Source: Fibrobacterota bacterium
GTDB taxonomy: Bacteria > Fibrobacterota > Fibrobacteria > UBA11236
Assembly: GCA_028287465.1 (NCBI GenBank)
Contig: JAQBPO010000003.1
Span: 12,912-76,911 of the forward strand
DNA length: 64,000 nt
Reading direction: 5' to 3'
Part shown: positions 1 through 6,031 of the stretch, piece by piece
Layout: each line of letters begins with the position of its first letter
How positions within the stretch are numbered: position 1 is the first letter of the stretch
The notes under the pieces: generated by a model
The model's database searches: none
Seen by the model: only the letters and a program-made list of their open reading frames with translations
What the model was told of the DNA's origin: nothing
Program-made: the position numbers and the translations under genes

Positions 1-1
1 C

Positions 2-445
2 AGCCTTTCCAAAGGCAAGGTTCGAGCCATCGCCGGTCACCCGAACGGATACATCTACGCCAGCGATGACGCCAATTGGTACAGGATAAACCCTGCCGGT
101 ACTCCAATCGCAAGCCGCTCCCAGATCATGTTCGCGGACAGCTCCAATTTCAAGGGGATGGGCTTCTATTGGGAACGGGAGGACCTGAAATTCACGGGGA
201 CGCCGCTTAAACATAAGATCAACCTTTGCCACTATCCCCCGGGACAGTGCGCGAACGTCCAAACGATCCAGATCGACAGCAACTCCCTTGGCGGCCATTC
301 GACCCATACCAGCGCATGTCCGCCGGATTACGCGGGCTATTGCGGCGGTATCCTGGGAGAGATCGTGGACGTGCCGGACACGACCATCCAGCTGAAGATC
401 ATTTCCTGGGAGGAAAAGTCCGGGGACCTCGCGCACGCCCCATAG
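2..445 (+). CDS. 3' end of a larger secreted/surface protein running off the left edge; ends in the same Cys/His module and I-[IL]-S-W tail as the two PilX/GspK-like proteins downstream
   Basis: Frame 2 is open from the window edge to TAG 443-445, so track ORF 128..445 is only its last Met. The C-terminal ~75 aa (KINLCHYPPGQC..GGHSTHTSACPPDYAGYC..IQLKIISWEE) align by eye with the tails of 2389..3222 and 5132..6031. Confidence 0.6.
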   Translation, partial: SLSKGKVRAIAGHPNGYIYASDDANWYRINPAGTPIASRSQIMFADSSNFKGMGFYWEREDLKFTGTPLKHKINLCHYPPGQCANVQTIQIDSNSLGGHSTHTSACPPDYAGYCGGILGEIVDVPDTTIQLKIISWEEKSGDLAHAP

Positions 446-476
446 GCCCTTTCCACATTTTTCCTTCCTGATAGGA

Positions 477-493
477 CAAGCGGCAAACGCTTG
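477..493 (+). terminator. weak hairpin after the edge gene (6-bp stem CAAGCG/CGCTTG, 5-nt loop), no U-tract
   Basis: Inverted repeat read directly at 477-482 / 488-493, 32 nt after TAG 443-445. It is followed by CCCTTTCC rather than a T-run. Confidence 0.25.
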
Positions 494-602
494 CCCTTTC
501 CCCGTTCCCGCTCCGGCCAATCCCCCATTCCCAGGGTAACCTCCAGGTTAACAAAGGACCCAAATACCCTTGGGTTTGCCCTGAATAATCCACCGATTGT
601 AT

Positions 603-631
603 TTGCATCCACCGAACCTGCCCCCTATAAT
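603..631 (+). promoter_or_regulatory. sigma70-type promoter candidate for cassette A (TTGCAT - 17 nt - TATAAT)
   Basis: -35 TTGCAT 603-608, 17-nt spacer, -10 TATAAT 626-631, 44 nt upstream of ATG 676. The geometry matches the candidate before cassette B (3402..3430). Confidence 0.45.
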
Positions 632-675
632 CGGAAAGCCGACTGTACCGATTGGTACACCCGCAGGATGGTCCG

Positions 676-3283: not shown

Positions 3284-3401
3284 TCGCGCAACACGGATCA
3301 CTTGCAAGACGTATCGGCCCTTATTTCCGGGGCCGGAAACGCATGGCTTCAATCAACGTCAACTCCGCCAATAATCCCCCCGTACGCAAAAGGTAAAGTG
3401 G

Positions 3402-3430
3402 TTGAAAGCGGATCCTTGCCCCGCTATACT
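3402..3430 (+). promoter_or_regulatory. sigma70-type promoter candidate for cassette B (TTGAAA - 17 nt - TATACT)
   Basis: -35 TTGAAA 3402-3407, 17-nt spacer, -10 TATACT 3425-3430, 42 nt upstream of ATG 3473. It mirrors the cassette A candidate. Confidence 0.45.
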
Positions 3431-3472
3431 CATCCTGCCCTCGTACCCATCGCGATTCGAAACCCGGAGCTT

Positions 3473-3982
3473 ATGGCAAAATCACAAGACAATCGGAACA
3501 CCGGTCTGAACCTTATCCAAGGCGGCGGGAACGGACGCGAGTTCCTGCTCGAGAAAATGCGCGGCAAGCTCGCCGGTTCGCCGCTGCCGGATTTCCATGC
3601 CGTGGAGAAACGCCGCTACGCGACTTCCCGTTCCTTCCAGGGTTGGGGCTGGAAGGCAGGCCTGGCGGCCGTATTGTTCCTAAGCAACGCCGTCTACCTC
3701 GCCGGGAAGCCTTCGTCGGCTGCCGCGGTCACGGCCGCGAAAAGGGCTCCGACCCTGGTACGCGCGCCCGCCGCCTTGGGCGTCAACGAACAGGCCTTGT
3801 TCTGGGCGTATTCCTTGTATGATTTCAACCGGCTCAAGGCCGACTTCGGGGTTCCCAAAACCGCGATCGTGGACGCGCGCCTGGCCGACATGCGTTTGCG
3901 CGAATTGCTGCCCAAGGCCGATGCGCCGACCCGCGCACGCATCGAACGCTATCGTACCCCTGGCGGCGGGAGGACCCGATGA
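3473..3982 (+). CDS. bitopic membrane protein of unknown family, first gene of pilin-like cassette B
   Basis: ATG 3473 follows GGAG. The longer track ORF from 3302 would swallow the promoter candidate. 169 aa with EKMRGKLA, TM span WKAGLAAVLFLSNAVYLAG and NEQALFWAYSLYDFNRLKA..LLPKADAPTR; paralog of 676..1176. Confidence 0.7.
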   Translation: MAKSQDNRNTGLNLIQGGGNGREFLLEKMRGKLAGSPLPDFHAVEKRRYATSRSFQGWGWKAGLAAVLFLSNAVYLAGKPSSAAAVTAAKRAPTLVRAPAALGVNEQALFWAYSLYDFNRLKADFGVPKTAIVDARLADMRLRELLPKADAPTRARIERYRTPGGGRTR

Positions 3983-4374
3983 ACAAGCCCATCGATCGCC
4001 AAACCGGCTTCAGCCTCCTCGAAATCCTGGTTTCCTCCGTCGTCGTGCTTTTGCTGGCCACCTCGGTCTTCTACTTCATCCACTCCCAGAACGGCATCGG
4101 GATGCGTAACGGCGATACGCTCAAGAGCGTCAATGCCGGGAAGCTGAAAATGGATTCCCTGAAGGTCGCGGCCTACGGGGAACTCACCTCCGGAGCGGAT
4201 ACCGTTTCGGACCGATACATCCGGGCCTGGCATGTGAGCCGATTGGTGGATGGAGCGGGCCTCCCCACCGGGATCAAGCAGATCGACATGAACGTCATGT
4301 GGCCGCTTAGCGCGGAGCATTCCATATCCTTCGCATCCCTGAGGAGCGACGACAGATTCAAGGAGGGCCGATGA
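3979..4374 (+). CDS. prepilin-type minor (pseudo)pilin, PilV/GspI-sized, cassette B
   Basis: ATGA overlap at 3979-3982, RBS GGGAGGA. MNKPIDRQTG/FSLLEILVSSVVV (Gly, Glu+5). 131 aa; shares KSVN.GKLKMDSLKV..SG.DTVS.RYIR.WHV..LRSDDR with 1173..1595. Confidence 0.8.
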   Translation: MNKPIDRQTGFSLLEILVSSVVVLLLATSVFYFIHSQNGIGMRNGDTLKSVNAGKLKMDSLKVAAYGELTSGADTVSDRYIRAWHVSRLVDGAGLPTGIKQIDMNVMWPLSAEHSISFASLRSDDRFKEGR

Positions 4375-5135
4375 TCAGGACTTACGGCAACGGCGACCAA
4401 TCGGGTCTGACCTTGATCGAATTGATGGTGGGACTGGTGGTAGGCTCCATCGTGATGGGTGGCGCCTACAAGCTGTGGATCACCCATTCCCGCGAGAGCA
4501 TCACCATCGAAAAGAAGATCTGGGTCAGGAACGGCATGGCCCTTTCCTCGAAGCGGATCCAGCGATCGGTCACCCTCGCCGGGATCGGATTGAAGGGGGC
4601 GGCGAACCTGTCCAAGGACGACGCGGTGGGAAGCGATACCCTGACCATTTACACCAATTCCCAGGAAAGGGAATCCCGCCTGCTCAATGATATTTTCGCG
4701 GGAGGGGGCCTGGAAATCCAGGTTGAAAATCCCTCCGCTTTCGTGGGAGCAGCCTACGTCGCCCTCAGCTCGGGAACCGGCGGCGAGATCAGGAAAATCC
4801 TGTCGCAGGAAGGGTCCACCCTCCTGTTGGACTCGGTGTTCGCCTCCGATCATCCGGCCTCCGCCAGCATGGCCTATCCCGCCGTGCGCGAGCGGTTTTA
4901 TACGGACCAGATCCAGAAGCAACTGATCCGGGAAGCCAATGGCTCGTCCAATACCATCGCCCGCGAAGTGAAAAACTTCCAGGTCTCCTTCCGGGACAAC
5001 CACGGGGCTTCCACGGAATCCCCGGAAGAGGTCTATACCGTCCTGTTCTCCTTCACCGGCGTCTACCCCGCCAGGGACGGGGCCTTGAACAGCATCCCCT
5101 TCTCCTCAATCGCCATTCCGAGGAACACATTATGA
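4371..5135 (+). CDS. prepilin-type minor pilin, PilW/GspJ-like, cassette B
   Basis: ATGA overlap at 4371-4374, RBS AAGGAGGG. ..GDQSG/LTLIELMVGLVVGSIV (Gly, Glu+5). 254 aa; collinear with 1592..2392 down to the shared C-terminus ..FSS.AIPRN.L. Confidence 0.8.
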   Translation: MIRTYGNGDQSGLTLIELMVGLVVGSIVMGGAYKLWITHSRESITIEKKIWVRNGMALSSKRIQRSVTLAGIGLKGAANLSKDDAVGSDTLTIYTNSQERESRLLNDIFAGGGLEIQVENPSAFVGAAYVALSSGTGGEIRKILSQEGSTLLLDSVFASDHPASASMAYPAVRERFYTDQIQKQLIREANGSSNTIAREVKNFQVSFRDNHGASTESPEEVYTVLFSFTGVYPARDGALNSIPFSSIAIPRNTL

Positions 5136-6031
5136 GCGCAACCGCATGCGATGGGAATGGGATGGCAAGCCAGGCAGGCAGCAGAAACCAGGCGGGCAGC
5201 AGAAACCAGGCGGGCGGTGGCATGCTGGGCGTGGTCGCGGCCATCGGAGTCATCCTGGCCCTCGTCCAGGGGACCGTCTTCTACCAATCCAGAGGGAGCT
5301 CCGCCTTCCTGGGTTCCGAAAAGAACAAGATCCTGGCCATGCAGATGGCCGAAGCCGGCGTGGAGGAGAATATCGCCGACATAGGGACCCGCAGGACCCT
5401 GGCCAACCCGGGCATGTCCGATTTCCCCACCCATGTGGACAAAATCCTGGAAGGCGGGAAATACAGCTCCAGCCTAACGGCCCTGAACTTCGGAGCCAAC
5501 GGCGACACCATCGATCTCGTTTCCACCGGATTCGTCGGGAAGGCTTCCCATACCGTCAAGGCGCGCCTGCGGCTGAGGAAACACCTGGACACGGCCATGT
5601 CGGCCACACCCCTGATCGAGCCTGAAACCACCTATACCGTTTCCCCCGTTACCGTACCCGATACCATCAGGACGGTTACGCCTCCCCCGAGCCCGGCTTC
5701 CATGCCCGCTCTGACCTCGACCCCGGCCTATACGGCCTGCATGGGCGGAGCGGCGCCCAAGTGCAATGTCTGCCATCTTCCGTCCTCGCCTAGCCCGGCC
5801 GGAAGGATGGTCCTGAACATGGCCAAATTCCTCATTGCCGCCCATAACGGGCATATCGGGGATTACGTTTCGACCGACGGGACATGCGATTTGTACGATA
5901 CGACCTACGCCAATGCCATCACCTTCCACACCAAACTGGATTCCGTCATGAGCATAGCCTCGGTGACGTCGTACGATTCGAGCGTCGTGGTCGACACCCT
6001 GATCAAGGTCCAGATTTTAAGTTGGAAGTGA
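5132..6031 (+). CDS. PilX/GspK-like pseudopilin with Pro/Thr-rich linker and C-terminal Cys/His module, cassette B
   Basis: ATGA overlap at 5132-5135. ..GGGMLGVVAAIGVILALVQG then ILAMQMAEAGVE. The tail reads ..AYTACMGGAAPKCNVCHLPSSP..AAHNGHIGDYVSTDGTCDLY..IKVQILSWK. 299 aa. Confidence 0.75.
   Translation: MSATACDGNGMASQAGSRNQAGSRNQAGGGMLGVVAAIGVILALVQGTVFYQSRGSSAFLGSEKNKILAMQMAEAGVEENIADIGTRRTLANPGMSDFPTHVDKILEGGKYSSSLTALNFGANGDTIDLVSTGFVGKASHTVKARLRLRKHLDTAMSATPLIEPETTYTVSPVTVPDTIRTVTPPPSPASMPALTSTPAYTACMGGAAPKCNVCHLPSSPSPAGRMVLNMAKFLIAAHNGHIGDYVSTDGTCDLYDTTYANAITFHTKLDSVMSIASVTSYDSSVVVDTLIKVQILSWK
5171..5221 (+). repeat. 18-bp tandem repeat (about 2.8 copies) encoding (Q)AGSRN repeats in the N-terminal leader of the cassette B PilX-like protein
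   Basis: caggcaggcagcagaaac / caggcgggcagcagaaac / caggcgggcggtggc read directly. It translates to QAGSRNQAGSRNQAGGG, whereas the cassette A paralog has a single QAGGG. Confidence 0.85.

Follow-up and report, generated by a model that had tools for sequence, protein, structure and literature searches.

Tandem prepilin gene cassettes in a Fibrobacterota bacterium as candidate tip sets for a type IV pilus

What purpose could several copies of a prepilin gene set serve when no pilus machinery is encoded beside them? This question is raised by the left end of a 64,000 nt stretch of DNA, referred to here as the window, from a Fibrobacterota bacterium (GenBank assembly GCA_028287465.1, contig JAQBPO010000003.1, positions 12,912 to 76,911). 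Eight open reading frames (ORFs) on the plus strand between 676 and 6031 form two collinear four-gene cassettes, A-B-C-D, in the ORF list, of which cassette 1 spans 676-3222 and cassette 2 spans 3473-6031. The locus rather probably encodes alternative minor-pilin tip or priming sets for a type IV pilus, with an adhesin built into the PilX-like protein D. The evidence for this reading, the points against it and the competing explanations are presented below.

Prepilins and a PilX-related protein in each cassette

The two units had been delimited in a preliminary description of this DNA, and the coordinates given there match the ORF list exactly. The start codons are identical in an independent gene call on a public Logan contig of 14.5 kb (L001), from which window coordinates are obtained by subtracting 4058 from the contig position. 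Cassette 1 consists of A1 (676-1176, 166 aa), B1 (1173-1595, 140 aa), C1 (1592-2392, 266 aa) and D1 (2389-3222, 277 aa). Cassette 2 consists of A2 (3473-3982, 169 aa), B2 (3979-4374, 131 aa), C2 (4371-5135, 254 aa) and D2 (5132-6031, 299 aa). Protein identity between the paralogs is 40% for A, 57% for B, 58% for C and 53% for D (53-54%), and the DNA of the two cassettes is 64% identical over 1.65 kb. An assembly duplication, already dismissed in the preliminary description because of the divergence of the paralogs, is ruled out by this degree of DNA identity.

The criterion used for prepilins was G(-1) followed by F or M(+1)-x-x-x-E(+5) and then a hydrophobic helix. A six-frame motif scan of the window revealed only four prepilin signals, which are those of B1 (QAG/FGLVEILVS, the slash separating positions -1 and +1), C1 (VG/FTLVELMVG), B2 (QTG/FSLLEILVS) and C2 (QSG/LTLIELMVG). 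The Pfam family N_methyl (PF07963) is matched above threshold by C1 (E 2e-6) and C2 (E 2.7e-8) and at threshold by B1 (E 1e-4, 22.2 bits vs. a cut-off of 21.2) and B2 (E 8.5e-5). The cut-off of 16.3 bits of NCBIfam TIGR02532 is reached by C1 (E 4e-5), C2 and B2, and B1 stays below it (12.6 bits, E 0.097). Alignments of 23 B and 21 C sequences show that the prepilin motif is conserved in both families. By their class III signal peptide, B and C belong to the type IV pilin/pseudopilin superfamily, as had been proposed. The finer assignment of B as GspI/PilV-like and of C as GspJ/PilW-like, based on size, gene order and the prepilin signal, is tentative. For C, the earlier label PilW/GspJ-like agrees with signal, size and order, but no profile or structure match goes past helix alpha-1. 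NCBIfam matches of B and C to PRK10557 (E 6e-5, 22 bits vs. a cut-off of 120), HpsC, GspH and ComGF are sub-threshold, and the PDB profile match of C to Thermus TTHA1219 (5g23) is weak (E 0.13).

Protein D, like A, has no prepilin motif. Its signal region reads QAGGG/ML.. and Glu5 is absent, a feature known for GspK and PilX. PilX_N (PF14341) was not matched directly: D1 gave only two sub-threshold chance matches in Pfam (zf_CopZ and Arfaptin), and D2 and D0, the D protein of the third cassette described below, gave no Pfam family at E values up to 1. A D-family profile of 50 sequences, searched against 1.84 billion representative proteins, resulted in 136 matches of two kinds. Those of the first kind are proteins of 350-580 aa aligned through D residues ~10-140, and those of the second cover only D positions ~192-233. 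Pfam PilX_N was detected in six of 28 scanned relatives of the N-terminal kind; P0165, P0174, P0186 and P0191 (D profile E 2e-4 to 7e-4) pass the PilX_N threshold at residues ~10-67. None of a first set of ten remote D relatives had PilX_N, which was found in the second set.

The first ~130 residues of D were aligned with the six PilX_N carriers by hhalign (98.5%, E 1.6e-15, 127 columns). The motifs AEAGVE and STG.VG..(Q/R)TV are common to both, and the C-terminal strand ..ILSW(K/R)E is present in two of the six carriers (P0165 in full, P0185 in part). Judged by this transitive and profile evidence, the N-terminal domain of D is homologous to the PilX_N family. The preliminary description of D as a pilin-like protein in the PilX/GspK position is thereby supported through intermediates and through the structural model, with no direct match.

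The AlphaFold model of D1 has a mean predicted local distance difference test score (pLDDT) of 85 and consists of a helix (13-70) and a four-strand sheet formed by the strands at 82-135 and the C-terminal strand. A beta-ribbon stalk (~136-165 and 238-265) leaves the sheet at ~136 and returns at ~265, and a compact Cys/His module (170-237, pLDDT above 90) lies at the far end of the ribbon, in agreement with the earlier proposal that this module is exposed at the tip. The last strand (266-276, VKVQILSWK) is placed back in the sheet, and the insertion of ~136-265 precedes it. In a Foldseek search of the D1 model against the PDB, the only meaningful match was ComZ (6qvi; probability 0.97-0.98, 22-24% identity, 111-119 columns); EpsI was among the weak fold matches. 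The sequence-profile search of the D family against the PDB gave a chance match only. From one AlphaFold model and a weak Foldseek match, D is predicted to have a ComZ-like topology with an insertion that separates the last beta-strand from the one before it. The insertion itself is of another kind than the beta-solenoid of ComZ, namely a beta-ribbon with the module in D1 and D2 and a propeller in D0. GspK families are not matched by D, and no helical insertion is present in the sheet of the model.

The module-kind profile matches (P0081-P0200 being remote D matches) revealed a 40-aa repeat, KVTICHxPPGNPxNxxTIxVxxSAxxAHLxHGDxxGxC, which occurs in 1-18 copies in proteins of up to 2896 aa. These proteins also contain SprB, cadherin, PKD, HYR, VWA and T9SS-tail domains, and PilY1, PilC-adhesin and GspK models were found in a single instance each among them. 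No Pfam or NCBIfam model covers the repeat, and the remote D matches are either unnamed or annotated as hypothetical proteins. By sequence, D1 and D2 each hold one diverged copy of this widespread surface-adhesin repeat, the module of D2 being more diverged within a D1-type architecture. The special sensing site that the preliminary description had seen in the Cys/His module is replaced by this assignment.

C184, C192, C195, H196 and C232 are invariant in 50 D sequences. Generic repeat copies have two cysteines, whereas D1/D2-type proteins have four invariant ones, giving a CxxCH motif (KCDVCH in D1, window 2941-2976; KCNVCH in D2, 5758-5793) that is invariant in the 50 D sequences and found in none of 224 generic module copies. 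In the one D copy without C192 (L009_10863), C184 is lost as well, and C195-H196 and the terminal cysteine are retained. Because C184 and C192 are lost together, two disulfides (184-192 and 195-232) fit better than heme. Two disulfides would be the economical reading of the D module and heme attachment a long shot; a heme-binding minor pilin was rejected as the principal interpretation on account of the correlated loss and the absence of the motif from generic modules.

A third cassette, the membrane protein A and the conserved locus

The preliminary description had expected the array to continue to the left. L001 extends 4 kb beyond the window and contains exactly one more complete cassette there, A0-B0-C0-D0, encoding proteins of at most 188 aa (A0), 128 aa (B0), 261 aa (C0) and 509 aa (D0). 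Cassette 0 marks the end of the array, since the next genes upstream are a small ORF and an EVE-domain gene. Its proteins are 28-44% identical to those of cassettes 1 and 2 and thus far more diverged. The small ORF (87-103 aa, no Pfam match) is conserved between the EVE-domain gene and cassette 0 at L001 795-1058, L014 4849-5130 and L016 5376-5687.

The window begins within D0, whose last 147 codons (2-445, plus strand) comprise the final blades of the propeller, followed by the Cys/His module KINLCHYPPGQC...H..H...C and by IISWEE, the closing strand of the pilin. This left-edge gene gave no significant BLAST match to D2, and the homologs retrieved with it were short fragments only. Its module is homologous to that of D by hhalign (95.5%, E 1.6e-8), which bears out the earlier remark that it ends in the C-terminal module of D, and the last strand is common to both (IISWEE in D0, ILSWK in D). 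The N-terminal domains of D0 and D are homologous as well (hhalign 99.6%). Between N-terminal domain and module, D0 has an insertion of ~290 aa with 4-5 internal repeats of the type PNGxhYhh...hYKI; a profile search detected three of these, two of them strongly, and the others were recognised by eye. With a profile of the insertion, matches were obtained to tachylectin-2 and to an engineered lectin with a five-bladed propeller (E 1e-5), the tachylectin-like blade being GHPNGYIYASDDANWYRINP; the Pfam scan (E up to 1) gave no match for the propeller. From profile matches and internal repeats, at blade level, D0 appears to carry a beta-propeller with tachylectin-like blades. The earlier statement that no PilY1-like adhesin is present holds for the 64 kb window, but the upstream D0 has a tachylectin-like beta-propeller of its own. 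In L009, the D0 ortholog retains the propeller and has no Cys/His module.

A1 is a bitopic membrane protein. Its cytoplasmic N-terminus of ~55 aa, which contains the near-invariant sequence EKMRGKLA, is followed by a single transmembrane helix and by ~65 aa that form a helical domain in the periplasm. The pLDDT of its model is 70 overall and ~90 at residues 100-160. Profile searches of A in Pfam, NCBIfam and PDB sequences gave no match, and a Foldseek search with the model gave no PDB fold match (best E 1.9). Eleven homologs of A1 were found, and all named ones are from metagenome-assembled genomes (MAGs) of Fibrobacteria or Fibrobacterota. A diverged FimU/GspH was considered for A and rejected, as there is no prepilin motif and ~55 cytoplasmic residues precede the transmembrane helix.

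All six internal junctions of cassettes 1 and 2 are 4-nt stop/start overlaps (TTGA at 1173; ATGA at 1592, 2389, 3979, 4371 and 5132), exactly where they had been placed before, with an AGGA/GGAGG-like ribosome-binding site a few bases 5′ of each. In a consensus scan of 1-6700, only two promoter-like sites were detected on the plus strand. The sigma-70-type site of cassette 1 (602-631, TTTGCA-18-TATAAT or alternatively TTGCAT-17-TATAAT) lies ~45 nt 5′ of the ATG at 676, and that of cassette 2 (3402-3430, TTGAAA-17-TATACT) lies 43 nt 5′ of the ATG at 3473; both correspond to the promoter candidates proposed earlier. Most cassettes of other genomes, cassette 0 included, are preceded at a distance of ~40-50 nt by a TTGnnn-17/18-(C-rich: CCCC.)TATAAT element, and this recurrence of the TATAAT-type element is beyond chance. 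The element is missing where the second cassette starts 12-45 nt after D0 (L009, L010 and L016). Independent cassette promoters are thus, by sequence, frequent and not universal.

No sense-direction terminator-like site was found between the cassettes, so read-through between them is possible. Of the claim that the sets are separately transcribed, the part concerning conserved promoter-like elements holds; separate transcription is not established, given the missing terminator and the three genomes with no element at the second cassette. In cassette 0, the CCCCCCTATAAT element (L001 1230-1242) stops right at the called ATG of A0, and the real start is therefore probably an internal Met 18 codons downstream (MANNYKDQ).

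The spacer between D1 and A2 (3228-3283, plus strand) contains four copies of the octamer GCTTACCG in two tight pairs, and it is uncertain whether they are part of the system. The window has 11 copies against 1.1 expected. Tight direct pairs occur three times, at 3228/3238 and 3267/3276 in the spacer and at 50649/50659 (50649-50666) in a long intergenic region 5′ of an alpha-amylase-family gene. The arrangement GCTTACCG-N2-GCTTACCG is found once in the spacer upstream of cassette 2, beside the second pair with its 1-nt spacing. Further copies are located at 47093-47100, 11466, 31028, 52955 and 54868. The pairs are a possible candidate for a shared regulator binding site; a conserved operator was rejected, since the octamer is not kept in other genomes.

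Synteny of the cassette locus extends over 15 loci of uncultured Fibrobacteria, 12 of which lie in species-representative genomes and three in metagenome assemblies. Each locus has between one and three cassettes, and the gene order is EVE gene, small ORF, array, convergent lipoprotein gene (~170 aa) and alanine racemase. The cassette-bearing lineages are from soil, freshwater and permafrost, and the 49 clusters of D homologs are all from Fibrobacterota/Fibrobacteria MAGs or unnamed. The architectures observed are (A0B0C0D0)(ABCD)(ABCD), (A0B0C0D0)(ABCD), (A0B0C0D0)(BCD), (A0B0D0)(ABCDD), an orphan A0-like gene with (ABCD(D)), and (ABCD) alone. A second, diverged D directly follows the first, downstream of the last D, in L002, L009, L016, L010 and L004. 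A is absent in L005 and L014, C0 is absent in L009 and L016, and an orphan A0-like gene without B0-D0 is present in L002, L004 and L008.

Neighbour-joining trees of A, B and C each place the cassette-0 genes in a clade of their own, and cassette 1 of the window pairs with the cassette of L003 and not with cassette 2 of the window. This indicates that the duplications predate speciation. All 12 ORFs of the three cassettes are intact. Comparison of the close strains L006 and L007 gave ratios of non-synonymous to synonymous substitution rates (dN/dS) of 0.07 (B), 0.09 (C) and 0 (D, in which all 18 differences are synonymous). B, C and D are under strong purifying selection. The cassettes are accordingly old, conserved paralogs and not decaying copies.

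Pfam scans were carried out for 39 further ORFs across 6-64 kb, 32 of which have at least one Pfam match. No ATPase, platform protein, secretin, prepilin peptidase, PilY1 or major pilin was found among them, as had been noted before, nor was type II secretion machinery found in the window; the flanks of the other loci are likewise without pilus or secretion machinery. The other window genes encode, among others, aminotransferases, a transglycosylase, PrkA, SpoVR, glycosyltransferases, an M1 peptidase, arginine decarboxylase, an alpha-amylase-family protein and MTHFR, and precomputed Pfam data for L001 place the alanine racemase downstream of the array.

Convergent to D2 and 14 nt from its stop codon, a gene at 6046-6582 (minus strand) encodes a predicted lipoprotein of 178 aa (lipobox LSGC, no Pfam match), with equivalents of 162 and 173 aa between array and alanine racemase in L014 and L016. 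A secreted pentapeptide-repeat protein of 424 aa (7802-9076, plus strand) adjoins the alanine racemase. Furthermore, the minus strand encodes a conserved yeaG/ycgB-type stress module at 20934-25972, with PrkA (AAA and kinase C-terminal domain), an unassigned 469-aa ORF and SpoVR, a 996-aa Kelch protein (six repeats) at 33637-36627, where the GC content is locally high (0.67), and a DUF4423 protein at 46091-46966. Paralogous DUF4423 proteins are presumably characteristic of Fibrobacter, and their presence would agree with the taxonomy assigned to the window.

Proposed alternative tip sets and competing explanations

In the proposed mechanism, other parts of the genome would encode the motor, platform, secretin, prepilin peptidase and major pilin. 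PilC/D/M/N/O/Q/T were found in 10 of 10 and PilB in nine of 10 Fibrobacteres genomes surveyed, nine of them metagenome- or isolate-derived and the tenth that of F. succinogenes S85 (PMC4704652), and type IV pilins have been implicated in the adhesion of Fibrobacter to cellulose (PMC4704652, PMC3079729). By analogy with GspK-I-J, PilVWX-PilY1 and ComZ-PilA2, B, C and D would assemble via their N-terminal helices into a short stub that primes filament growth and then remains at the tip. D would form the cap at the very top, with its insertion as an exposed binding head. The argument is that a protein without Glu5 and with a bulky insertion before the last strand only fits at the top, as argued for ComZ and GspK; according to the published argument, the filament tip is the one place that accommodates a ComZ-type protein, which acts as the receptor (PMC6561018).

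D could thus act as a built-in tip adhesin that replaces PilY1. The heads would be propeller plus Cys/His module in D0 and, in D1 and D2, a beta-ribbon stalk with one disulfide-stabilised diverged module. As the three sets differ in these heads, one pilus machine could take different ones. A may be a lineage-specific inner-membrane accessory factor, translationally coupled to B, with a chaperone or docking factor for its set as the best guess. Complex formation, tip location, adhesion, choice between the sets and the role of A are all inferred by analogy.

Several results weigh against this reading. Pilus machinery is absent from the 68 kb of this genome that were covered, and the cassettes contain neither a GspH/FimU-like fourth minor pilin nor PilY1. 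The canonical type IVa priming complex, in which PilY1 accompanies four minor pilins (FimU-PilV-PilW-PilX-PilY1), is therefore not what the genes encode: each cassette has three pilin-like genes, and no match to PF05567, the C-terminal beta-propeller of PilY1, was found in cassettes or window. PDB profile searches of B and C match pilin helix alpha-1 only, Pfam and NCBIfam assign neither C to PilW/GspJ nor B to PilV/GspI, and no direct match in these databases names D as PilX or GspK. The predicted template modelling score (pTM) of the D1 model is only 0.46, the Foldseek E-value for ComZ is weak (0.3-0.4), and the tachylectin similarity of D0 depends mainly on one blade. The dN/dS of A is 0.77, calculated from only seven differences. 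Some cassettes lack A, and A0-like genes also occur as orphans, which disfavours a strictly obligatory one-to-one partner. Cultured Fibrobacter apparently has no cassette, as no named Fibrobacter match is among the D homologs.

Three other explanations were weighed. The cassettes could encode GspI-J-K-type tips of a type II secretion pseudopilus, alternative tips adapting the piston to different secreted substrates, e.g., polysaccharide-degrading enzymes. With three members and no GspH/FimU, the set is similar to the GspK-I-J core trimer, Glu5 is missing from D as it is from GspK, the pilin domain of ComZ is closest to GspK (PMC6561018), and a type II pathway has been reported for F. succinogenes (PMC3079729). 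EpsI among the weak fold matches and the occurrence of GCTTACCG-N2-GCTTACCG both 5′ of cassette 2 and 5′ of the alpha-amylase-family gene would also fit. However, the remote D relatives carry PilX_N, a type IV pilus family, and not GspK families, the D1 model shows no GspK alpha-helical domain, no gspC-M genes are nearby, and adhesin-type modules and a lectin-like propeller would be of little use on a periplasmic piston. Type II tips are on this balance unlikely.

The missing machinery would also fit a pilin-like stub, short, self-contained and anchored in the membrane, or a display device that spans the periplasm. Either would be organised by A, would need only prepilin peptidase and would present the lectin/adhesin modules at the cell surface. 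Such a device would explain why the first gene of each set encodes its own membrane protein coupled to B, why none of the 15 loci has a linked major pilin or machinery and why the family is limited to one uncultured lineage. Pilin stubs that cross the outer membrane without secretin and ATPase have no precedent, however, no resemblance of A to platform or ATPase-recruiting proteins was detected, some cassettes lack A altogether, and the PilX, GspK and ComZ relatives behave as tips of machine-built filaments. This makes the display device very unlikely. The same low probability is given to redundant duplicates, of which one cassette is active and the others are drifting, so that copy number has no functional meaning. 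The number of cassettes varies between one and three among genomes, A, C0 and extra D copies come and go, and clusters 1 and 3 of Myxococcus are functionally redundant under laboratory conditions (PMC8833165). Against mere redundancy stand the intact ORFs, the age of the paralogs, each with orthologs in other genomes, the purifying selection on B, C and D, the promoter elements conserved per cassette and the difference of a whole domain between D0 and D1 or D2.

An extension of the tip-set reading makes A a set-specific selector. EKMRGKLA would dock on the pilus machine and the periplasmic domain would hold the cognate B-C-D stub, so that the cell could select one of three heads for each pilus, the lectin-like propeller or either of two different stalks with a Cys/His module. 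The widespread 40-aa module CH..PPGNP..HxxHGD..C would represent a new kind of adhesin unit that binds metal or glycan. This extension is speculative and quite unlikely in full. If true, it would amount to a programmable pilus tip for the recognition of different polysaccharide surfaces.

Relation to known systems and meaning for Fibrobacteria

Pilin proteins with an inserted domain are known from Thermus thermophilus, where pilA1-pilA2-pilA3-comZ (6QVI) resembles the cassettes in that prepilin genes are followed by a larger last gene missed by pilin predictors. ComZ has a GspK-like pilin domain with an extra domain between the penultimate and last strands and is not recognised by PilFind (PMC6561018). 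It is the only meaningful fold match of D1, with an identity of only 22-24% over ~115 residues, and C weakly matches Thermus TTHA1219. The insertion of ComZ is a DNA-binding beta-solenoid of ~380 aa, in contrast to the beta-ribbon with 40-aa module of D and the propeller with module of D0. Furthermore, Thermus has a GspH-like PilA1, no A-type membrane protein and a single set, whereas the Fibrobacteria have a tandem array.

GspK-GspI-GspJ (3CI0) is similar in its trio of small, medium and large proteins, the order I-J-K and the large capping subunit without Glu5. The gsp operon context of type II secretion is absent around the cassettes. TcpB of Vibrio cholerae is a type IVb initiator/tip minor pilin akin to CofB. 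In both, the extra domains are appended C-terminally and the genes lie within a type IVb pilus operon, whereas the insertion of D precedes the last strand. CofB of enterotoxigenic Escherichia coli (PMC6561018) is comparable in combining a pilin domain with beta-rich tip domains for assembly initiation and binding, and GspK has an alpha-helical domain between strands 3 and 4 (PMC6561018), which is missing in D, itself linked to PilX_N. For D0, the blade motif PNGYLYAV..xxLYK of tachylectin-2 (1TL2), a five-bladed lectin for N-acetylglucosamine and N-acetylgalactosamine, matches the blade GHPNGYIYASDDANWYRINP. The likeness is at the level of the blade motif only, the D0 propeller is embedded in a pilin, and sugar binding is putative.

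The closest precedent for alternative sets is Myxococcus xanthus, in which several minor-pilin/PilY1 clusters (1-3) serve one type IV pilus machine (PMC7541494, PMC8833165). As in the cassettes, alternative minor-pilin sets are organised in operons with overlapping stop and start codons, and one set has a dedicated, lineage-restricted accessory protein, TfcP, which is found only in cluster_1 and is required for the function of that set (PMC8833165). The Myxococcus sets widen the conditions under which the pilus works, as the cassettes may do. They comprise four minor pilins and a separate PilY1 and are dispersed, in contrast to the three pilin-like proteins without PilY1 in tandem found here, and the adhesin is the separate PilY1 instead of an adhesin-like domain that is part of the PilX-like subunit. 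A is a bitopic helical protein without heme motifs and TfcP a cytochrome c of the periplasm, and the two are analogous in logic.

The idea of swappable tip sets advanced in the preliminary description is favoured as a model for this locus, but the concept was already realised in Myxococcus xanthus (PMC7541494, PMC8833165). Since alternative sets of minor pilins, domains inserted into tip pilins and accessory proteins specific to one set are general principles established in Myxococcus, Thermus and type IVb systems, the advance would be incremental. New are the tandem syntenic array, the three-pilin set without FimU/GspH or PilY1, the A family and the unannotated Cys/His repeat. The fusion of an adhesin into a PilX-like subunit, in three versions, also appears to be new, the adhesin role of D being suggested by its domains. 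Two uncharacterised families are thus exposed, the A membrane protein and the widespread 40-aa Cys/His repeat.

Fibrobacteria are specialist degraders of insoluble polysaccharides and must attach to their substrate. To our knowledge, no tip adhesin has been described for their type IV pili. The D proteins, PilX-like, with built-in binding modules and in up to three versions, are concrete candidates for such tip adhesins, and the cassettes are relevant mainly to work on type IV filaments and to the study of how Fibrobacteria attach to polysaccharides.

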